The notes beneath the pieces are model-generated. The model made no database searches and was not told the DNA's origin. It saw nothing but the letters and a program-made list of their open reading frames with translations. From positions 1 to 64,000 of the IMG/VR virus record IMGVR_UViG_3300005613_000044: a DNA stretch of 64,000 nt. The stretch is one strand, 5' to 3'. This document shows positions 4,166 through 58,109 of the stretch, in pieces (position 1 is the stretch's first letter; every line of letters starts with the position of its first letter). Source of the stretch: a virus. A program made the translations under genes and the position numbers.

Positions 4166-5530
4166 ATGGCTCAGTGGAATAAGAATACACAAGATTATCT
4201 AAATCAAGAGAGAACACTTCACGAAGTCTTTATGTGTGCCGATAGATATGGCAACATTGGAGATTGTGGAGTATCTACAGGAATAAGTGCTGGTGGTTAT
4301 GATGCTTTTGGTCGTTCTAGAACATCAGAACCCTTCACACTTGCAGACTATTCACATCAATATGGATTAAATGAAGAAATCCTCACTAAAAAAGTTGGAA
4401 CTGCATCTACAGTAGAATATCTCAGAAATAAAGCAGCAGCATCACTTGTAGTTGGAATTGGTTCCACTGATTATGTGATACATCAGTCTAGAATGTATCA
4501 CCACTACATGCCAGGCAAATCCCAGTTTGCTCTTTCTAGTTTTAACTTTAATGATGTCAGAGAGAATACTGTTAAAAGAACTGGATACTTTGATGATAGA
4601 AATGGAGTATTTGTTCAGCAGGAAGGTGATGGAACAGTTTCTTTGGTAAGAAGAGATTATGTCTCTGGTATTGCATCGGATACTGTTGTCAATCAATCCA
4701 GTTGGAGTTTAGATCCAATGAATGGTGTTGGTATTTCCAGCATCAGTCTTGACTTTACAAAGACTCAGTTATTTGCAACTGATTTTCAATGGTTAGGCGT
4801 TGGCAGAATTCGTTGTGGATTTGTCATTGGCGGAAGCCTTGTATATTGTCACGAATTCAATCATTCTAATGTAGAAGAAAATGTCTATTGGAGTCATCCA
4901 TCACTTCCCATTCGATGTGAAGTAAGAAATACGGATACTGCTGTTGGTATCACATCAATGCAACAGATTTGTTCTACTGTATTAAGTGAAGGTGGATATG
5001 AAGAAAGTGGATTTGAATTCTCACATGGAATATCAACTGCAATTTCTCTTCCTGGTTCTAATAGTGCTCCAAATCACATTAAGTGTGTAATGGCAATTCG
5101 TGCCAAAACAACTGTAAATGGATATCCAAATAGAACAACAATTCGTCTTTCAGATTTAGAACTTCTTTCTACTTCTGCACCTTGTAAGTTTGATGTTTAC
5201 AGAATGCCAGATAGTTCAAACATTACTGGGGGAACTTGGGTAGATTTTGATGATGATTACTCTGGTGTTCAGTATAATATCGATGTTGGCACTAACTTCA
5301 ATCTAACAAATGCATATCCAAAATCTACTGGATATGTAACAGGAAATAATCCATCAGGTAAACAAGCATCCGGTAATATCAATTTGAGCCCATCATCCGC
5401 AAAAAAATCATATCTTGCACAAAACATAGATAGTGATGATAGTAACATTTTTGCAGTAGTTGTTCAAAACTTAACTACAAATACTGCAAATGAAATTTAT
5501 GTTGCTATGCAATGGAGAGAAACACGATAG
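4166..5530 (+). CDS. Putative virion structural protein
   Basis: 454 aa, beta-strand-rich composition, DAFGRxRxSxPFTL motif, located in the late region. Confidence 0.55.
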   Translation: MAQWNKNTQDYLNQERTLHEVFMCADRYGNIGDCGVSTGISAGGYDAFGRSRTSEPFTLADYSHQYGLNEEILTKKVGTASTVEYLRNKAAASLVVGIGSTDYVIHQSRMYHHYMPGKSQFALSSFNFNDVRENTVKRTGYFDDRNGVFVQQEGDGTVSLVRRDYVSGIASDTVVNQSSWSLDPMNGVGISSISLDFTKTQLFATDFQWLGVGRIRCGFVIGGSLVYCHEFNHSNVEENVYWSHPSLPIRCEVRNTDTAVGITSMQQICSTVLSEGGYEESGFEFSHGISTAISLPGSNSAPNHIKCVMAIRAKTTVNGYPNRTTIRLSDLELLSTSAPCKFDVYRMPDSSNITGGTWVDFDDDYSGVQYNIDVGTNFNLTNAYPKSTGYVTGNNPSGKQASGNINLSPSSAKKSYLAQNIDSDDSNIFAVVVQNLTTNTANEIYVAMQWRETR

Positions 5531-7900: not shown

Positions 7901-7979
7901 TTCATGTCACATTTCCCCACTGAAAGGTCTATTTTTTCTAAATATTTTTAGATAAACTGAGATCCTAAAGGAGAAAAAC

Positions 7980-10184
7980 ATGGCAACTCCTCAATTATCT
8001 CCAGGCGTACTCGTCAGAGAGGTTGATTTAACAGTTGGTAGAGGCAATAATGTCCTCGATAACATTGGTGCTATTGCTGGTCCCTTCAGAATTGGTCCTG
8101 TCGATGATCCAATTCAAGTTTCCAATCAGCAAGAGTTAATCAATACTTTTGGTACTCCCCTTTCCACTGACAGACAGTATGAGTACTGGATGAGTGCTTC
8201 TTCCTTCCTTTCATATGGAGGGGTTCTTAAGGTTGTAAGAACTAACGACGACAATCTTACAAACGGCAATGCTGGTGTTGGAATTGCTTCAACTTCAACA
8301 CTCAACATTACAAATTATGATGATTACGAGGCTAACCACACTAACGATACTACTTTTTACTGGGCAGCTAGAAATCCTGGTTCTTGGTCAAACTCAATGA
8401 GAGTTTGTATTATTGATGACGCAGCTGACCAAATTATTGGTATTACAACAGATAGTCTTGCTAGTGTAGGTGCTGCTGTTGGTTATGGTGTTACTTCACC
8501 ACTTTCAAGTACTATTCTTCCTGGTGCTGGTACAACATCAACATTTGATGGGTATCTGAAAGGTATTATTACTGGTGTTAGTACTGACTCCACAAATAGT
8601 AATAGTACTATTAATGTTAAAATTCTTTCTAGAGTTTCAACAGCTGGTACAGAATATCCAATTACTTATAGTGAGAATGATACAAATTCCTCTTTTGAAG
8701 TTAGTGACTCACTGACATTCTTGGGGAACGATGGATCAAACGCTGGATCAGCTACTGTAGCTACTGAAAAAGATTGGTATAACGAACAAACTCTTGGTCT
8801 TACCAATTCAACTGTTTATTGGAAGTCAATCGCTCCTAGACCAATCTCCTCAAATTACTCCACTTCTAGAAGTGGTAGAGGTGATTCGATTCACGTTGTA
8901 GTTTATGACGACACTGGATCAATTACAGGTATTCAAGGTAACATCTTAGAGAAGCATTTGTTCCTTTCTAAGGCAGTTGATGCTGGAGCAAACGCAGATT
9001 CTCCAACGAAGATTTACTACAAGGACTTTATTTCAAGAAATTCAACACAAGTCTTCCCTGGATATAATCCATCGAATGCAGCTGATTCATATTGGAATAC
9101 TGAACCTCTTTCTGTTGGTTTCTCCACCAACTATGTTAAGTATACAACTGCTGAAGGTCTTTGGGGTCAAACAGCTCAAGATACTGTATTCAGTGCTATT
9201 GGTAATGTTTCCTATGTCTTTGATGGTGGTAAAGACTATTCTGGAAATGTTCCAGAAATTGGTGGAAATGGTGGAATGGAGGCAACTTTAGGTAATCTGA
9301 ATACTTCATATAGATTGTTCTCGAATAGAGATGAAGAAGCTGTTGATTACCTGATAATGGGTCCTGGACTTTCAAACGAGAGTGAATCACAAGCTAAGGC
9401 AAATCTTTTGATTTCTATAGCTGAAGGTAGAAAGGACTGTGTTGCTACAGTTGGTCCACACAGAGCTAACATCGTTAACGTTACAAATTCAACAACTCAA
9501 ACAACAAATCTTCTGAGATTCTTTAGTCCATTACAATCTTCTTCATACGCTGTATTTGATAGTGGATATAAGTATACTTACGATAGATTCAATAATGAGT
9601 TCCGTTATATTCCAACTAACGGTGACGTTGCTGGTCTGATGGTTAGAACTGGAATTCTGGCTTATCCTTGGTTCTCACCAGCTGGATTACAAAGAGGTGT
9701 TCTGAATAACGCTGTTAAACTGGCATACAATCCAGATAAGTCTCAAAGAGACCTTCTCTATCCAGCAAGAGTTAATTCCATTATTAACAGAAAAGGTTCT
9801 GGAGTAGTTCTCTTCGGAGATAAGACAGCTCTTGGATACTCTTCGGCATTTGACAGAATCAATGTTAGAAGATTGTTCTTGACTGTTGAACAGGCTCTCG
9901 AAGAGGCAGCTCAAACTCAACTCTTCGAACTGAACGATGAGAACACAAGAGCAAACTTTGTTAACATCGTTGAACCTTACCTCCGTGATGTTCAGGCTAA
10001 GAGAGGTCTTTATGACTTCTTAGTTGTTTGTGATACTTCAAACAATACTCCTGAGGTTATTGATAATAATGAATTTAGAGCTGATATTTACTTGAAACCA
10101 ACCAAGTCTATCAACTACATCACACTGACCTTCGTAGCAACCCGTACTGGTGTTGCATTCGAAGAAGTTGTTGGTACTGTTTGA
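7980..10184 (+). CDS. gp18: Tail sheath protein
   Basis: SPGVLVREVDLT, WFSPAG, FDRINVRRLF, FVATRTGVAFEE. Confidence 0.97.
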   Translation: MATPQLSPGVLVREVDLTVGRGNNVLDNIGAIAGPFRIGPVDDPIQVSNQQELINTFGTPLSTDRQYEYWMSASSFLSYGGVLKVVRTNDDNLTNGNAGVGIASTSTLNITNYDDYEANHTNDTTFYWAARNPGSWSNSMRVCIIDDAADQIIGITTDSLASVGAAVGYGVTSPLSSTILPGAGTTSTFDGYLKGIITGVSTDSTNSNSTINVKILSRVSTAGTEYPITYSENDTNSSFEVSDSLTFLGNDGSNAGSATVATEKDWYNEQTLGLTNSTVYWKSIAPRPISSNYSTSRSGRGDSIHVVVYDDTGSITGIQGNILEKHLFLSKAVDAGANADSPTKIYYKDFISRNSTQVFPGYNPSNAADSYWNTEPLSVGFSTNYVKYTTAEGLWGQTAQDTVFSAIGNVSYVFDGGKDYSGNVPEIGGNGGMEATLGNLNTSYRLFSNRDEEAVDYLIMGPGLSNESESQAKANLLISIAEGRKDCVATVGPHRANIVNVTNSTTQTTNLLRFFSPLQSSSYAVFDSGYKYTYDRFNNEFRYIPTNGDVAGLMVRTGILAYPWFSPAGLQRGVLNNAVKLAYNPDKSQRDLLYPARVNSIINRKGSGVVLFGDKTALGYSSAFDRINVRRLFLTVEQALEEAAQTQLFELNDENTRANFVNIVEPYLRDVQAKRGLYDFLVVCDTSNNTPEVIDNNEFRADIYLKPTKSINYITLTFVATRTGVAFEEVVGTV

Positions 10185-10221: not shown

Positions 10222-10806
10222 ATGCCAAACGCAAGTCTCGCAGATTTTAAATCAAAACTGGTGGGCGGTGGCGCCCGCCCCAATTTATTTGAGGTTTCAA
10301 TTCCAGCTCTTCCAGAAGCTGCTCAAACATCAATTAATGATGAAACCTTCAAGTTCTTATGTAAATCTTCTAATCTTCCAGCTTCAAATATCGCTGAAGT
10401 CATTGTTCCTTTTAGAGGAAGAAACTTCAAAGTCGCTGGTGACAGAACAGTTGATCCATGGACTGTAACTGTTATCAACGATGAAAACTTTGAGTTTAGA
10501 AGTGTATTTGAACAGTGGGCAAATGGATTGGGTAAACTTGATAATGGTACTGGTGCTACTGAACCAGCTTCATATATGACCAATGCTTATGTTAGACAAC
10601 TTGGTAGAGGTGATAGCCCCTCTGCTAGAACCAATGGTTCAAACATGGTCACTCTTAGAGAGTACAAGTTTGTTGACATCTGGCCAAGTTCAGTTAGTGA
10701 AATTTCTGTAAGTTATGATGAAGGAAACGCCATTGAACAGTTTGATGTAACCTTCCAGGTACAAACTTTTGAAGTTTCTGGTGGTGAAGGACCAACAATC
10801 TCCTGA
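10222..10806 (+). CDS. gp19: Tail tube protein
   Basis: GGGARPNLFEV, VPFRGR..KVAGDRT..PWTVT. Confidence 0.95.
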   Translation: MPNASLADFKSKLVGGGARPNLFEVSIPALPEAAQTSINDETFKFLCKSSNLPASNIAEVIVPFRGRNFKVAGDRTVDPWTVTVINDENFEFRSVFEQWANGLGKLDNGTGATEPASYMTNAYVRQLGRGDSPSARTNGSNMVTLREYKFVDIWPSSVSEISVSYDEGNAIEQFDVTFQVQTFEVSGGEGPTIS

Positions 10807-53688: not shown

Positions 53689-53762
53689 GACTCAGTAGCT
53701 CAGTGGAATAGAGCATCGCTCTTCTAAAGCGTTGGTCGTAGGTTCGAATCCTACCTGAGTCG
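53689..53762 (+). tRNA. tRNA-Arg(UCU)
   Basis: Acceptor gactcag/ctgagtc, anticodon loop CTTCTAA, T loop TTCGAAT. Confidence 0.93.
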
Positions 53763-53764
53763 TT

Positions 53765-53887
53765 ACGGATTGGCGACATCCGTGCTCACATCTCCGAGAG
53801 AAAAAGAATCGGAACACCAACCCATGTGAGAGAGAGGTGGGATCCCTCTTGAGCCCGTCAGTGTTATTCTGCAGGATAATATTGACG
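53765..53887 (+). ncRNA. Multi-stem structured RNA between tRNAs (manA-motif-like)
   Basis: Stems acggat/atccgt, ctcacat/atgtgag enclosing ccga/tcgg, agagg/cctct and a long cgtca...tgacg hairpin; family assignment is from recall only. Confidence 0.6.
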
Positions 53888-53897
53888 TATTCTTATT

Positions 53898-53968
53898 GCC
53901 TCTAAAGCATTGTGGTGATGCAGCTGTTTTGTAAGCAGCAGAGGTTGGTTCAATTCCGACTAGAGGCT
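53898..53968 (+). tRNA. tRNA-Thr(UGU), non-canonical core
   Basis: Acceptor gcctcta/tagaggc, anticodon loop TTTGTAA, T loop TTCAATT; A8 and U14. Confidence 0.85.
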
Positions 53969-53972
53969 CCTT

Positions 53973-54044
53973 GCGAGATTAGTTCAGTGGTAGAACGCCA
54001 TCCTTCCAAGTTGGATGTCACCGGTTCGAATCCGGTATCTCGCT
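53973..54044 (+). tRNA. tRNA-Gly(UCC)
   Basis: Acceptor gcgagat/atctcgc, anticodon loop CTTCCAA. Confidence 0.93.
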
Positions 54045-54077
54045 TTTCCTTTTCTTAAGGAATAAATGGATGATTGT

Positions 54078-54149
54078 GGGTGAATAACTCAGCGGTAGAG
54101 TGTCTCGTTTACACCGAGGTTGTCGGGGGTTCGATCCCCTCTTCACCCA
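54078..54149 (+). tRNA. tRNA-Val(UAC)
   Basis: Acceptor gggtgaa/ttcaccc, anticodon loop TTTACAC. Confidence 0.93.
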
Positions 54150-54167
54150 TTTGCAATAATAATTAAT

Positions 54168-54392
54168 ATGAAAAATAAAAAGTTCCGTAAAATGATTCAA
54201 AAACCTTTAAGGTTTCATCATCAAGACATTCATGAGGAATTGGAAGAAATAAAGGAGATGTTGAAAGATGTTATCTTACAGATGCAAACAATGCAACAAA
54301 GAGTTGACCAGCAACACGAAAATACAATGTTGCGGTTGTCCGAACATGATGACAATCACGGAGAACAAAGTTTCAGCCTTGGATCTAAGTGA
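54168..54392 (+). CDS. Hypothetical protein
   Basis: MKNKKFRKMIQKPLRFHHQDIHEEL; start moved downstream of tRNA-Val. Confidence 0.4.
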   Translation: MKNKKFRKMIQKPLRFHHQDIHEELEEIKEMLKDVILQMQTMQQRVDQQHENTMLRLSEHDDNHGEQSFSLGSK

Positions 54393-54516
54393 AGTAATAT
54401 TACTAAATTCTAAAAAGATTGTAAATAATCATGATGTCCTGACAAAAAATGATTTAGAATATCAGGAGAACAGAAGAAAACGTAAAATTCGTAAATTAGA
54501 CTTCGAGGTACGATAA
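54268..54516 (+). CDS. Small zinc-ribbon hypothetical protein
   Basis: RCKQC...CCGCPN; AAGGAG SD-like site upstream. Confidence 0.6.
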   Translation: MLSYRCKQCNKELTSNTKIQCCGCPNMMTITENKVSALDLSEVILLNSKKIVNNHDVLTKNDLEYQENRRKRKIRKLDFEVR

Positions 54517-54713
54517 TGATTAATCTGGATACTCGATATCATGACTACTTACATACTAATAAATGTTTTAATATTAATGGCAAATGTGAAAAAGTAGTTG
54601 GGTATGGGTGGACAGATGATGGAAAAGACATTACTGGTTACTATGTCTTGACAAAAAACTACAAATTACATTATAATCTTAAAGAAGAGTTCCGACAAAT
54701 GGAAGAACTCTAA
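54516..54713 (+). CDS. Hypothetical protein
   Basis: Coupled ORF; contains TTGACA-N18-TATAAT (54648-54677) upstream of the next tRNAs. Confidence 0.55.
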   Translation: MINLDTRYHDYLHTNKCFNINGKCEKVVGYGWTDDGKDITGYYVLTKNYKLHYNLKEEFRQMEEL

Positions 54714-54716
54714 TAT

Positions 54717-54804
54717 GGAAGAGTGGCCGAGTGGTTTAAGGCGTTTGTCTTGAAAACAAAAGTAGGTAACACTACCGGAGGTTCGAATCCTCTCTCTTCC
54801 GCCA
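54717..54804 (+). tRNA. tRNA-Ser(UGA) with encoded CCA
   Basis: Acceptor ggaagag/ctcttcc, anticodon loop CTTGAAA, long variable arm. Confidence 0.93.
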
Positions 54805-54878
54805 CGGAATGTAGCTCAGTTTGGTAGAGCACTGCTTTTGGGAAGCAGGAGTCGCACGTTCGAATCGTGTCATTCCGA
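54805..54878 (+). tRNA. tRNA-Pro(UGG)
   Basis: Acceptor cggaatg/cattccg, anticodon loop TTTGGGA. Confidence 0.93.
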
Positions 54879-54924
54879 CTAGGATTTAAATCCTTAACAC
54901 TTATACGAATTGGAAATTTGTTCA

Positions 54925-55572
54925 ATGAAAATCTTTTTGGACACCGCTGATTACAACGCCATTGCCGAACGTTATGCTACTGGTTTGGTAGATGGTATTA
55001 CAACTAACCCGACACTAGTTCGTAAGTCTGGTGTGAATTATCTTGATTTTATCAAGACACTAGCGAATGATTTTGCTTTTGAAAGTATCTCTGCTGAAGT
55101 CGATGGTGAGACTTATGATGTGATGCTCGAAAATGCAAATCAGTTCCTTAATATTGATCCTTCTATTACTATTAAACTGCCTCTCACTAAGGAAGGTTTA
55201 ATTGCTTGTCGTGATCTTGCTTTGGGTGGTATCAAGACTAATGTCACCCTCTGTTTCTCTGCTGCTCAGGCAGTGATGGCCGCTAAGGCAGGTGCCACAT
55301 ACATCTCCCCATTTGTGGGTCGTATGAACGATAATAGTTTTAGTGGAGTCGAACTGGTACGTGCTATCTCTGGTTTATACTGTACTCATGGTGTTGAGAC
55401 TAAAGTTCTTGCAGCATCTCTTCGTGATGTCCACCATGTTTCCCGTTGTCTGTTGTATGGTGCTAATGTTGTAACACTTCCTCCAGCAGTCTTTGATAAG
55501 ATGTATAATCATGTGTTGACAGACTCTGGTCTGGCAATTTTTGAAAAAGATTTCAAGGAAATTAATGGTTGA
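54925..55572 (+). CDS. talC: Transaldolase (TalC family), auxiliary metabolic gene
   Basis: MKIFLDTAD, GITTNPTL, IKLP, TNVTLCFS, YISPFVGR. Confidence 0.95.
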   Translation: MKIFLDTADYNAIAERYATGLVDGITTNPTLVRKSGVNYLDFIKTLANDFAFESISAEVDGETYDVMLENANQFLNIDPSITIKLPLTKEGLIACRDLALGGIKTNVTLCFSAAQAVMAAKAGATYISPFVGRMNDNSFSGVELVRAISGLYCTHGVETKVLAASLRDVHHVSRCLLYGANVVTLPPAVFDKMYNHVLTDSGLAIFEKDFKEING

Positions 55573-55628
55573 AAGGGGTTGACACACTTGAAAATTTGAT
55601 ATAGTATTCTCTTATACATACTCTAACT

Positions 55629-55802
55629 ATGGATTTTTACTCGGTGGAATATTGGGAAGAAAACTGGGAAACATTGATCGAAAGAGTTGAAAATGGAGAA
55701 CATATAGGAATTGAAAACAAAGATGGAAATAAAGCAGTTATGATACCTGCAGATGATGAACTGGTTCGAATACACACTGAGTTAAATAACGACGCTCAGT
55801 AG
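55629..55802 (+). CDS. 57-aa Phd/YefM antitoxin-like protein (not in the ORF track)
   Basis: MDFYSVEYWEENWETLIERVENGEHIGIENKDGNKAVMIP; TTGACA-N17-TAGTAT upstream (55579-55607). Confidence 0.6.
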   Translation: MDFYSVEYWEENWETLIERVENGEHIGIENKDGNKAVMIPADDELVRIHTELNNDAQ

Positions 55803-55811
55803 TGTATTCAA

Positions 55812-55883
55812 GGGACTATCGCATATTGGTTAATGCCCATTCCTTATAAGAGTGTGAACCGGGTTCAATTCCCGGTAGTCCCA
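55812..55883 (+). tRNA. tRNA-Ile(UAU)
   Basis: Acceptor gggacta/tagtccc, anticodon loop CTTATAA, discriminator A. Confidence 0.88.
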
Positions 55884-55960: not shown

Positions 55961-55990
55961 TTGACAGAACCCCTGTCAAACCCTTATAAT
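55961..55990 (+). promoter_or_regulatory. Sigma70 promoter with an embedded inverted repeat
   Basis: TTGACA-N18-TATAAT; ttgacag/ctgtcaa. Confidence 0.7.
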
Positions 55991-56230: not shown

Positions 56231-56464
56231 ATGAAAGTTCTTCTTGAAAGATTTCCTTATCGTTATGTTGAGAGTGGTGTTCTAGAGAATGGAAACCCAG
56301 ATTATCGTATTCAAAAAGCAAATGAATATACTAATCGTTACTCTGACATGTACCTTCTTGACAATCAGATGCAACTTCTGACTGCTATGGAAGACTTTGA
56401 ATATACGAAATGGCTTGATCCAGATCGTATCCCATGTTATATCAGGGATAAAGTTTCTAAATAA
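56231..56464 (+). CDS. Hypothetical protein
   Basis: MKVLLERFPYRYV; GAGG SD-like site. Confidence 0.65.
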   Translation: MKVLLERFPYRYVESGVLENGNPDYRIQKANEYTNRYSDMYLLDNQMQLLTAMEDFEYTKWLDPDRIPCYIRDKVSK

Positions 56465-56484
56465 ATCTAGAATTGGAAATTTTC

Positions 56485-56769
56485 ATGGCAACAACAAGAA
56501 GAAAATCTTCTACAACTTCTGAAAGTGGGGCATATATGTCTCAGTATGATCAAGAAGTAGAACAGAGACTGAAAGTTATTGAGGCAAAACTTGAAGAACT
56601 TTCAAAACTGAAAGTTATTGAGTCAAAACTTGAAGAACTTTCAAATCAAAAATCAGAATCTTCAACTTCAGATACTTCTGAATTAGAAAAAAAGTTTGAT
56701 GTTTTGATTAAAGCTCTTAAGAAAACCCCTTCCCTAAATATTGGAAAACTTTCAAAAGGTCTTCTTTGA
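56485..56769 (+). CDS. Coiled-coil hypothetical protein with an internal duplication
   Basis: MATTRRK start after CTAAATA at 56457. Confidence 0.6.
   Translation: MATTRRKSSTTSESGAYMSQYDQEVEQRLKVIEAKLEELSKLKVIESKLEELSNQKSESSTSDTSELEKKFDVLIKALKKTPSLNIGKLSKGLL
56568..56645 (+). repeat. 39-bp in-frame tandem duplication
   Basis: actgaaagttattgag(g/t)caaaacttgaagaactttcaaa, two copies with one mismatch. Confidence 0.9.
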
Positions 56770-56870
56770 ATCTCGGAAAGATTTAAAACCTGCCCTGGTC
56801 GGTGAAGGATCCCCTTCAATCCCGAAGTCATGGAGAGACTTTAAAAATCCTGGTGGAGTCATTATGACCC
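56768..56870 (+). ncRNA. Two similar structured RNA units upstream of the wcaG-like RNA
   Basis: Each unit is a hairpin with a GGA loop, then UAAAA, CCUGGU(C)GG and a second hairpin. Confidence 0.55.
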
Positions 56871-56877
56871 TATTAAT

Positions 56878-56970
56878 AGTTTCTTGTTTCAATAAAACAA
56901 GTGGTGCGGATGGAGATAACACTCCCGCTCAGTTTCTTACTTCTGGTCAAAGAGTAAGTGGCGTGCATGA
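56878..56970 (+). ncRNA. wcaG RNA motif-like element
   Basis: Two AGUUUCUU-stem-AAG-UGGYG units upstream of an NAD-dependent epimerase gene. Confidence 0.7.
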
Positions 56971-56987
56971 AAAAACCTAAGTTTATG

Positions 56988-57017
56988 AAGAGGGGTTGTC
57001 ATAACCCCTCTTTTTTT
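56988..57017 (+). terminator. Intrinsic terminator
   Basis: aagaggggtt-gtcat-aacccctctt followed by a T run. Confidence 0.85.
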
Positions 57018-57024
57018 GTATAAT
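56996..57024 (+). promoter_or_regulatory. Sigma70 promoter of the glycan operon, overlapping the terminator
   Basis: TTGTCA-N17-TATAAT. Confidence 0.65.
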
Positions 57025-57050
57025 ACATATTGTGTGAGATTTAAAATTTA

Positions 57051-58109
57051 ATGTCTGATTATAAAAAGACAGCACTTGTACTTGGTGCTGGTGGTTTTAT
57101 TGGAAGTCACATGGTGAAGAGACTTCGATCTGAAGGATATTGGGTGAGGGGTGTTGATCTTAAGCGTCCTGAGTTTTCTGAAACTGAAGCAAACGAATTC
57201 ATTCAGGGTGATCTACGTGACGTAGATTTCGTGTCTCGTTGTCTTGAATATAAAGGTGAAAGAGGAAATTTCTATAATTCAGTTCCTTATCTTTATATTC
57301 AACCATTTAATGAAATTTATCAGTTTGCTGCTGATATGGGTGGTGCTGGATTTGTATTCACTGGTGAAAATGATGCAGATATTATGCACAACTCTGTTTC
57401 TATCAACCTCAATGTTCTTGAACAACAACGTATTTTTAATGATAGATATGGAGTGAATAGAACTAAGATCTTCTATTCTGGTTCTGCGTGTATGTATCCA
57501 GAACATAATCAACTCGATCCTGATAATCCAGACTGTCGTGAAGGATCAGCATACCCTGCAAATCCAGATTCTGAATATGGATGGGAAAAACTCTTCAGTG
57601 AGAGACTCTATCTTGCATACAATCGCAATCATGGTATCCCTGTTCGTATTGCTAGGTATCACAACATTTTTGGGCCTGAGGGAACTTGGGAAGGGGGAAG
57701 AGAGAAAGCACCTGCAGCAATTTGCAGAAAGATAGCTTCTGTTCCTGATGTTGGTGGTGCAATTGAGGTTTGGGGAGATGGTGAACAGACTAGATCGTTC
57801 CTTTATATTGACGAATGTATTGAAGCTACTAGAAGATTGATGGATTCCGACTTCATGGGACCTGTGAATATTGGTTCTGAGGAAATGGTATCTATTAATG
57901 AATTAGTTCGTGTTATCTCTAAGGTTTCTGGTAAAATAATTCAGAGAAGGCATAGACTTGATGCACCTCTTGGTGTTCGTGGACGTAATTCCAATAATGA
58001 CTTAATTCGTGAGAAACTTAACTGGGATTATGAGATGACACTTGAAGAAGGAATTGCTAAAACTTATGAATGGATTAATGAACAGTTAAGAATTAAAATG
58101 AAACTATGA
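57051..58109 (+). CDS. NAD-dependent sugar epimerase, GDP-mannose 3,5-epimerase-like
   Basis: GAGGFIG, AADMGGAGF, SGSACMYP, YGWEK, GGREKAPAAICRK, GVRGRNSNN. Confidence 0.88.
   Translation: MSDYKKTALVLGAGGFIGSHMVKRLRSEGYWVRGVDLKRPEFSETEANEFIQGDLRDVDFVSRCLEYKGERGNFYNSVPYLYIQPFNEIYQFAADMGGAGFVFTGENDADIMHNSVSINLNVLEQQRIFNDRYGVNRTKIFYSGSACMYPEHNQLDPDNPDCREGSAYPANPDSEYGWEKLFSERLYLAYNRNHGIPVRIARYHNIFGPEGTWEGGREKAPAAICRKIASVPDVGGAIEVWGDGEQTRSFLYIDECIEATRRLMDSDFMGPVNIGSEEMVSINELVRVISKVSGKIIQRRHRLDAPLGVRGRNSNNDLIREKLNWDYEMTLEEGIAKTYEWINEQLRIKMKL

Follow-up and report, generated by a model that had tools for sequence, protein, structure and literature searches.

Organization of the RNA array

The window analysed here, the whole 64,000-nt stretch formed by positions 1 to 64,000 of the IMG/VR virus record IMGVR_UViG_3300005613_000044, is part of a 73-kb viral contig whose nearest named relatives are T4-like Synechococcus phages (Kyanoviridae). 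An array of four structured RNA units (A to D), closed by a terminator-like hairpin and followed by a glycan gene island, is present at 56768–57024. All parts of the array that an initial annotation of the sequence had described were located. The array and the elements that close it are as follows.

56769–56824, + strand: unit A; stem P1 56769–56773 (aatct) with 56779–56783 (agatt), loop CGGAA, linker UAAAACCUGCC, core CUGGUCG at 56795–56801, hairpin P2 at 56800–56824
56825–56870, + strand: unit B; stem P1 56825–56829 (aagtc) with 56837–56841 (gactt), loop AUGGAGA, linker UAAAAAUC, core CUGGUGG at 56850–56856, hairpin P2 at 56855–56870
56875–56972, + strand: wcaG RNA (units C and D); Rfam RF01761, 88.4 bits, model positions 1–98 of 98
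56987–57019, + strand: intrinsic-terminator-like hairpin and T run closing the array; hairpin of 12 pairs at 56987–57013, present in the minimum free energy (MFE) and centroid folds
56996–57024, + strand: sigma-70-type promoter-like site TTGTCA-N17-TATAAT; 11 of 12 consensus matches, with the -35 box in the terminator loop and the -10 box right after the T run

Units A and B belong to a conserved CUGGUSG module

No Rfam 15 family matches units A and B at E ≤ 10 in 56600–57100, and no family covers the units at gathering level in 14 related loci. The Rfam scan proposed in the initial annotation recovered wcaG in this region; the only other matches at the same threshold are weak and terminator-driven (L20 leader, small RNAs), and the abiF, type III antitoxin (ToxI), glutamine, preQ1 and manA models gave none. 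No description of the A/B module was found in the literature searched.

Many viral contigs contain a 15-base core of unit B, most of them with the same surroundings. Alignment of 53 distinct units defines a module of approximately 45–58 nt, which begins with a P1 stem of 4–6 bp that always carries GG in its loop, followed by an A-rich linker with an invariant AA and by the invariant CUGGU-S-G. The 3' part consists of a P2 hairpin of very variable length, closed by G-C pairs, and then a C run. For 50 units the 5' part was examined for covariation; each of the five P1 pairs is changed on both sides, and the covariation score was reached by none of 500 shuffles. A covariance model (R1) was built from the 5' part of the module, from P1 to the core only, with A and B included in the training set. 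The variable P2 hairpin was not aligned by MAFFT and hence stands outside the model. In the window and 99 further loci, R1 gave 86 matches of at least 24.6 bits, and every one of them is a unit. Unit A scores 44.1 bits (56767–56802) and unit B 41.6 bits (56824–56857), and units elsewhere score 24.6–50.6 bits. By this score and by their parts (P1 of 4–6 bp with a YGG loop, A-rich linker, CUGGUSG and P2), both belong to the module. A candidate third unit in the window, at 10232–10265 (21.7 bits), was rejected as a chance match, as it lies at the 5' end of a 194-aa open reading frame (ORF; 10222–10806) and has no GG loop.

An independent sample of 98 distinct units was taken from contigs drawn by a wcaG pattern. 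In this set, whose alignment was fitted to R1 and therefore favours P1, the four core P1 pairs are 93–100% paired with 3 to 29 double changes each, and again 0 of 500 shuffles reach the covariation score. A tertiary pair that was no part of R1 joins the nucleotide immediately 5' of the loop GG to the purine that lies three positions 5' of CUGGU; it is C-G in 70 units, U-A in 26 and another combination in 2 (n = 98). A second loop-to-linker contact is partly supported; leaving aside the units with A/A at this place, 37 remain, and 36 of these have a Watson-Crick pair. The corresponding pairs predicted in the window are C56774-G56792 in unit A and U56831-A56847 in unit B. The P2 hairpin is found in 103 of 128 units, compared with 48% of shuffled tails, and each unit holds approximately 10 invariant unpaired bases (GG, AA, CUGGU and G). 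Judged from these alignments, the A/B module appears to be a real small pseudoknot formed through the covarying loop-to-linker pair. Small pseudoknots had been suggested for the array, and as far as A and B are concerned the suggestion is backed by this one pair. The A/B module is a well-supported motif that adds to the conserved structured RNAs of the most abundant ocean phages.

Among known RNAs, the module shares several traits with tandem riboswitches and small H-type pseudoknot aptamers, represented by the preQ1-I class and the cyanophage glutamine riboswitches. Like them, it has a short hairpin with an A-rich 3' tail and a Watson-Crick contact from loop to tail, it holds many unpaired bases that do not vary, it occurs in tandem, and in some contigs its last helix includes a ribosome-binding site. 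It differs from them in the missing Rfam match at E ≤ 10, and of its loop-to-tail pairs one is supported and a second partly. In the window no start codon follows the units, unlike in some other contigs.

Units C and D form a full-length wcaG RNA

The assignment of units C and D to the wcaG motif was borne out by the RF01761 match, which extends over the whole model with an E value of 2.8e-15 and lies far above the gathering score of 42. The elements follow in the order hairpin, UGGUGCGGA, hairpin, GUUUC, hairpin, GUGGCG and conserved tail; the boxes were identified in the consensus alignment and the three hairpins in the centroid fold. The UGGY box noted in all four units stands at conserved positions, namely in the invariant CUGGU of A and B and in UGGUGCGGA and GUGGCG of the wcaG consensus.

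In the accessible text of its original description, wcaG is rated a probable riboswitch candidate that apparently regulates exopolysaccharide genes (Weinberg et al., 2010; PMC2864571), and cyanophage genome papers up to 2025, as far as their available parts go, still call it a cis-regulator of such genes. The literature searched, whose coverage did not extend to supplementary files, contained no experimental work on wcaG. The present copy resembles the catalogued motif (RF01761; PMC2864571, accessible text) in being a full-length, high-scoring member from a T4-like cyanophage located 5' of sugar-nucleotide genes. However, the motif was catalogued without the A/B modules, the terminator or the promoter, all three of which are present here. 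While the available literature treats wcaG as a cis-regulator in the 5' untranslated region, this copy lies 5' of the operon promoter and is closed by a terminator. The role ascribed to the motif is to regulate exopolysaccharide or high-light genes from their 5' untranslated region. Glycan genes do come next, but the terminator and the promoter-like site stand between them and the RNA.

The four units were initially treated as one repeat family, a view that did not hold. Tandem Repeats Finder reported no repeat in 56768–57024, the 5' parts of A and B are identical at only 21 of 34 positions (62%), and R1 did not match either wcaG half at E ≤ 1, although a relation in the 3' part is still possible because R1 spans P1 to the core only. 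All four units share the plan 'hairpin, UGGYG, hairpin', with the terminator serving as the last hairpin of D.

Units occur near wcaG in 91 of 100 wcaG-centred viral contigs, with two units in 47 and one in 44. As in the window, 82 of 157 distinct unit arrays adjoin wcaG directly, and in another 31 the units are separated from wcaG by a homologue of the small ORF that precedes the array in the window, together with a CTAAATA box. In rare chimeras, found in contig L025 and in phage S-SCSM1, a unit takes the place of the wcaG 5' half, immediately 5' of the D hairpin, and this chimera is still labelled 'wcaG' by Rfam and by the S-SCSM1 annotators. In S-SCSM1, the order is unit, D half, terminator, CTAAATA box and small ORF, and glycan genes do not follow. 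Whole phage records contain 1–2 units, all at the wcaG locus, on which grounds a regulon of operators plus a decoy was rejected.

A different arrangement was observed in contig L102, where a single unit at 5460–5520 is followed by a conserved-looking hairpin region (a GCCGAC inverted repeat, then GGCGCGUCGUGGC), an ORF and a wcaG without its first hairpin.

A terminator overlapped by a promoter closes the array

In a consensus scan, the hairpin and T run rank first among the terminator-like sites of the region, and TTGTCA-N17-TATAAT is among the best promoter-like sites. A hairpin with a T run lies 3' of wcaG in 118 of 131 distinct contexts, and in 104 of these 118 the terminator centre is 26–32 nt after AGUGGCG. 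In 7 of the 131, a G+C hairpin is kept without the T run. Promoter and tRNA counts were made on 126 distinct wcaG contexts with longer flanks. Approximately 96 of them show the terminator together with TTGNNN-N16–18-TANNNT, with the -35 box in the loop and the -10 box after the T run. The rest comprise 20 contexts with a terminator only, about 7 with a G+C hairpin without T run and then a tRNA within 90 nt, and 3 with neither. The closure of the array by a terminator overlapping a separate sigma-70-type promoter, as first annotated, is therefore an arrangement conserved across cyanophages.

Since the promoter overlaps the terminator behind the array, its predicted transcripts cannot contain the array, which would not be the leader of the promoter-proximal operon transcripts. 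The initial claim that the array is not the operon leader is supported to this extent; its companion, that the RNA acts in trans, was not demonstrated. The contexts with a hairpin lacking a T run (7 of 131) and those linked to tRNAs (about 7 of 126) suggest that conservation acts on the hairpin and on a defined 3' end, rather than on termination control as such. In the tRNA-linked contexts, the 3' end would come from RNase P cleavage. Loci with a hairpin lacking the T run and a tRNA gene a few bases further on include L010:10566–10755 and L025:2884–3083, and also L135, L171 and L180.

The composite matches the promoter-early stem-loop (PeSL) cassettes of T4-like coliphages and vibriophages, in which a sigma-70-like promoter is combined with a stem-loop that overlaps the -35 box or the spacer, and whose promoter and terminator activities were both shown by reporter assays, according to the accessible text of these studies (PMC2839356; PMC4122927). 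The available part of another report notes only a few PeSLs in cyanophage S-PM2 (PMC4503421). The present site belongs to this class by its sigma-70-like -35 and -10 boxes (11 of 12 matches), the overlapping stable stem-loop (12-bp stem) and its location in an intergenic variable region. It has in common with the described cassettes (Arbiol et al., 2010; Comeau et al., 2014; accessible text) the promoter with a G-then-C-rich stem-loop in a variable region near tRNAs. PeSLs serve as the terminator for upstream transcription and as the promoter for the next gene, as described there, and the present cassette is predicted to do the same. It differs in that a large conserved RNA lies at a fixed distance from it, an association not known for PeSLs. 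Exchanged gene neighbourhoods around the cassette are only suggestive of recombination between cassettes.

Genes and promoter-like sites upstream of the array

The region between the tRNA cluster and the glycan island contains the following features in addition to the array.

53689–55883: seven tRNA genes, near a transaldolase gene, 5' of the array
55961–55990, + strand: sigma-70-type promoter-like site TTGACA-N18-TATAAT; 12 of 12 matches, a consensus match only
56457–56463, + strand: CTAAATA box (late-promoter-like), directly 5' of the small ORF phrog_35121
56473–56769, + strand: small ORF, phrog_35121; 98 aa from TTG, with an ATG at 56485; its stop TGA (56767–56769) touches P1 of unit A
56734–56740, + strand: second CTAAATA box, within the small ORF, 29 nt 5' of unit A
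57051–58109, + strand: first gene of the glycan island, encoding an NAD-dependent nucleotide-sugar epimerase/dehydratase

Three small ORFs lie between the promoter-like site at 55961 and the array, belonging to phrog_552, phrog_481 ('gp206-like') and phrog_35121. On sequence grounds, the site at 55961 could launch an upstream transcript consisting of these three ORFs and the array. A 7-bp inverted repeat (TTGACAG...CTGTCAA) across its -35 box makes 55961–55990 a second PeSL-type stem-loop/promoter composite, without a T run. The CTAAATA box, which may be a late promoter, is likewise found in front of the homologous small ORF in other phages. In the whole window it occurs 11 times on the + strand and never on the - strand, a total that is not above chance (14.2 expected). 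Several copies stand shortly 5' of ORF starts, for example 7938–7944 before the 734-aa ORF at 7980, in agreement with a late-promoter function.

Of 157 distinct arrays, only 1, that of the window, has a late-type box (56734) in the 90 nt on its 5' side. This copy could give a stand-alone transcript, but it was rejected as a dedicated late promoter for the array since it is not conserved. The upstream ORF stops within P1 or the linker in 96 of 142 first units. This ORF is variable, being phrog_481-like in at least 55 of 142 contexts and one of many others otherwise, so that phrog_481 was also rejected as a dedicated partner of the array. Because no conserved promoter of its own was found and the upstream ORF ends inside P1 or the linker, the array is predicted to be co-transcribed with that ORF, as the untranslated tail of whatever transcript lies upstream.

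These observations also fit a passive element at the 3' end of a message, whose hairpins and pseudoknots would protect the preceding message against 3'-to-5' exonucleases, or would flag a place for processing between cistrons, with no specific partner involved. The units are placed exactly at ORF ends, the array stands at the 3' end of a transcription unit, and units occur at several kinds of gene junction. However, a block to nucleases needs neither the approximately 10 invariant unpaired bases per unit nor a covarying tertiary pair nor the single-stranded boxes of wcaG. With 1–2 units per whole phage genome, found at the wcaG locus only, the module is also not a feature of transcript ends generally. 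We consider such a passive role quite unlikely.

Metatranscriptomic data were available as assembled contigs, which cannot show starts, ends or levels and were not used as evidence for termination or abundance. A contig of RNA-library run X1 (depth 7) spans 56835–57068, across the terminator, and may reflect read-through or DNA carry-over. In run X4, a 196-nt contig (word depth 655) with one loose end covers 56791–56974, and no X4 contig lies on 56978–57285. The small ORF phrog_35121 contains a 39-nt tandem duplication at 56568–56645 (2.0 copies, 97% matches), which encodes the repeated LKVIE(A/S)KLEELS. Contigs of both runs jump exactly 39 nt here (56584 to 56624), indicating that relatives vary in the copy number of this duplication.

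Association with downstream genes and possible control in cis

The epimerase gene is followed by genes for GT11, GT2 and TOD1/MUCI70-like glycosyltransferases and a methyltransferase, up to 60847. In 67 of 124 contexts, the ORF that comes first behind wcaG passed a strict test for an N-terminal Rossmann motif, and most of the remaining first ORFs resemble other sugar-nucleotide enzymes by eye. As wcaG consistently heads glycan genes and the upstream neighbour varies, some functional tie of wcaG to the downstream genes is likely. The view that the array is uncoupled from the operon, taken in the initial annotation, is therefore only partly sustained; the operon has its own promoter, whose transcripts exclude the array, but the consistent position of the RNA at the head of the glycan genes speaks for a tie.

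This association speaks for a serious rival to the reading favoured below, which is a read-through gate acting in cis. Here wcaG and the A/B units would be sensors that bind a metabolite or protein and set the number of polymerases from the upstream early or late promoters that get past the terminator to the glycan genes. Expression of these genes would draw on both the early promoter of the operon and the gated read-through, and the riboswitch proposed by Weinberg et al. (2010) would be adapted to a terminator. The rating of wcaG as a probable riboswitch candidate for exopolysaccharide genes in the accessible text of that work (PMC2864571) favours the gate, as do the strong link to downstream sugar-nucleotide genes beside variable upstream genes, the nearly fixed distance of the terminator, with a conserved spacer that belongs to the Rfam model, and the aptamer-like character of the A/B units, which combine many invariant unpaired bases with covarying stems and a pseudoknot. 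The X1 contig across the terminator points in the same direction.

Single units outside the wcaG setting also look cis-regulatory. They adjoin a start codon in 23 of 70 non-wcaG contexts, with GGAG inside P2, which from its position is a possible site of translational control. For example, GGGAGCAAAACCCC-UU-AUG stands before an approximately 77-aa membrane protein, as translational control would look.

In L126, L151, L152, L154, L157, L161, L164–L166, L183, L194, L205, L217 and L221, a single A-type unit with GGAG inside P2 ends 2–3 nt before the start codon of a conserved protein of approximately 75–79 aa (M..LRYIGN.LL..GY..LWG) that is apparently membrane-spanning. In L041 (1610–1705) and L058 (reverse strand, approximately 5031–5115), two units lie directly 5' of a 202-aa ORF with no wcaG nearby; this ORF resembles cyanophage 2-oxoglutarate-Fe(II) oxygenases by eye, and in L058 the P2 of the second unit is replaced by the start region.

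The behaviour expected of an attenuating riboswitch was not found at the terminator of the wcaG loci. No mutually exclusive pairing between sensor and terminator was detected in 122 contexts. The duplex energies between wcaG and the terminator arms are the same in native and swapped combinations (-9.09 own and -9.15 swapped, -8.03 own and -8.05 swapped, in kcal/mol), and in 106 of the 122 the minimum-energy fold includes the terminator. These folding models give no sign that the terminator serves as an expression platform. The conserved promoter behind the motif (about 96 of 126) would make a gate dispensable for expression, the roughly 7 of 126 contexts with a hairpin lacking a T run and then a tRNA do not fit it, and in S-SCSM1 the RNA and terminator precede a late-type box and small ORF, not glycan genes. 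The read-through gate nevertheless stays the main rival, if a somewhat doubtful one.

A related possibility is that the folded RNA modifies its own polymerase so that it reads through the next and later terminators of the glycan operon. Processive antitermination of this kind is exemplified by the put RNAs of phage HK022 and by the EAR element in the eps operons of Bacillus. Such an RNA would suit the present location, with a terminator right behind it and a long polysaccharide-type operon to follow, and base-pairing competition with the terminator would be unnecessary, in agreement with the arm-energy result. On the other hand, Rfam gave no match to such a family at E ≤ 10, no other strong terminator came up on the + strand of the operon between 57100 and 64000 in the consensus scan, and both the conserved promoter behind the terminator and the tRNA contexts would be left unexplained. 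We regard processive antitermination as very improbable.

Candidate binding partners

An antitoxin mimic and a protein sponge had been raised as possible roles of the array. Type III antitoxin RNAs are arrays of near-identical direct repeats of approximately 34–36 nt, and phage-borne pseudo-ToxI is known. If the array were a mimic, its units would be cut to monomers that neutralise a host ToxN-like endoribonuclease. What it shares with ToxI and its relatives is the general look of short, pseudoknot-forming tandem units in one transcript ending at a terminator. Near-identical repeats are not present in 56768–57024, however, as no tandem repeat was reported, A and B are diverged (62% identical) and only 1–2 copies occur; in addition, no toxin gene is adjacent and, as stated above, no type III antitoxin model matched. 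None of 301 host-family genomes and none of 5 phage records contained ToxN_toxin (PF13958) above its cut-off, in a search whose controls hardly responded and which did not extend to other type III toxins (CptN and TenpN). An antitoxin mimic is hardly credible on this evidence.

CsrA (PF02599) was likewise absent from all 301 host-family genomes, in a search that detected 3 of 14 controls, and from all 5 phage records, and a CsrA-type protein sponge was excluded on account of this absence. The array shares with the CsrB and RsmZ sponges the repeated GGA hairpin loops, with A at unit loop position 11 in 110 of 138 cases, as well as its small size and terminator end. The invariant CUGGUSG box has no counterpart in Csr RNAs.

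A host copy of either RNA was also sought. RF01761 had no match in 151 genomes sampled from the family of Synechococcus WH7803. R1 gave weak matches (21–25 bits) in 5 of these 151, all without the loop GG or P2, and its best score in a sample of five named marine Synechococcus genomes was 17.8 bits.

Proposed function of the array

The anatomy, conservation and covariation of the array and its terminator/promoter composite are firm. We tentatively favour the explanation that the array acts as an independent RNA with a defined 3' terminus and binds a putative partner tied to the glycan island. It would be a modular RNA of T4-like cyanophages in which two pseudoknotted CUGGUSG modules (A and B) are joined to wcaG (C and D). 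The RNA would be made as the untranslated 3' tail of the upstream small-ORF transcript, starting at the sigma-70-like promoter at 55961 and/or at the late-type CTAAATA at 56457, and would end at the hairpin and T run at 56987–57019, with the 3' hairpin forming part of the folded RNA. The terminator DNA would double as a PeSL-type early promoter that independently starts the glycan operon. The array itself may be a stable multivalent platform whose invariant unpaired boxes (the loop GG, and CUGGUSG or GUGGYG beside a hairpin) bind the putative partner. We infer the transcript starts and ends, the stability of the RNA, and the existence and nature of the partner.

Several observations weigh against this explanation. 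The candidate partners CsrA and ToxN are missing from the phage records and host-family genomes searched, and neither wcaG nor the unit has a credible copy in the 151 host-family genomes. The restriction of units to the wcaG locus in whole phage records leaves no other operator sites for a decoy. The RNA-library contig across the terminator may represent read-through. The position of wcaG before sugar-nucleotide and glycan genes in most contexts, behind a varying upstream ORF, is as expected of a cis-regulator, and so are the single units next to start codons.

A broader proposal, which we rate as unlikely, is that the wcaG family as a whole is no riboswitch leader and instead consists of stand-alone RNAs with interchangeable pseudoknot or hairpin modules, ended by a terminator or by RNase P, which would act in trans as multivalent decoys through their repeated UGGN boxes. 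The factor bound by the decoy, of host or phage origin, would be linked to the glycan island. In one sub-case, which would take perhaps one fifth of the weight given to this proposal, the UGGN boxes may pair with free NCCA 3' ends of tRNAs and so link the phage tRNA cluster to the RNA, by analogy with the T-box bulge and the RNase P L15 loop, both of which pair with these ends. A further comparison is with species 1 and 2, stable small RNAs encoded among the T4 tRNA genes, and with RNAs derived from the spacers of tRNA operons; the trait in common is a structured non-coding RNA located next to a phage tRNA cluster. The RNA in the window differs from them by ending at a terminator and not at a tRNA, although in some contigs a tRNA lies directly behind it.

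Implications for wcaG and cyanophage gene organization

The wcaG motif has been an orphan 'riboswitch candidate' since 2010. In most of its instances, a terminator and a promoter separate wcaG from the glycan genes, and it is usually accompanied by one or two uncatalogued pseudoknot modules, which can replace its 5' half. These findings extend PeSL-type terminator/promoter cassettes to cyanophages and shift the focus away from a leader riboswitch, towards a discrete RNA with a partner or gated read-through.

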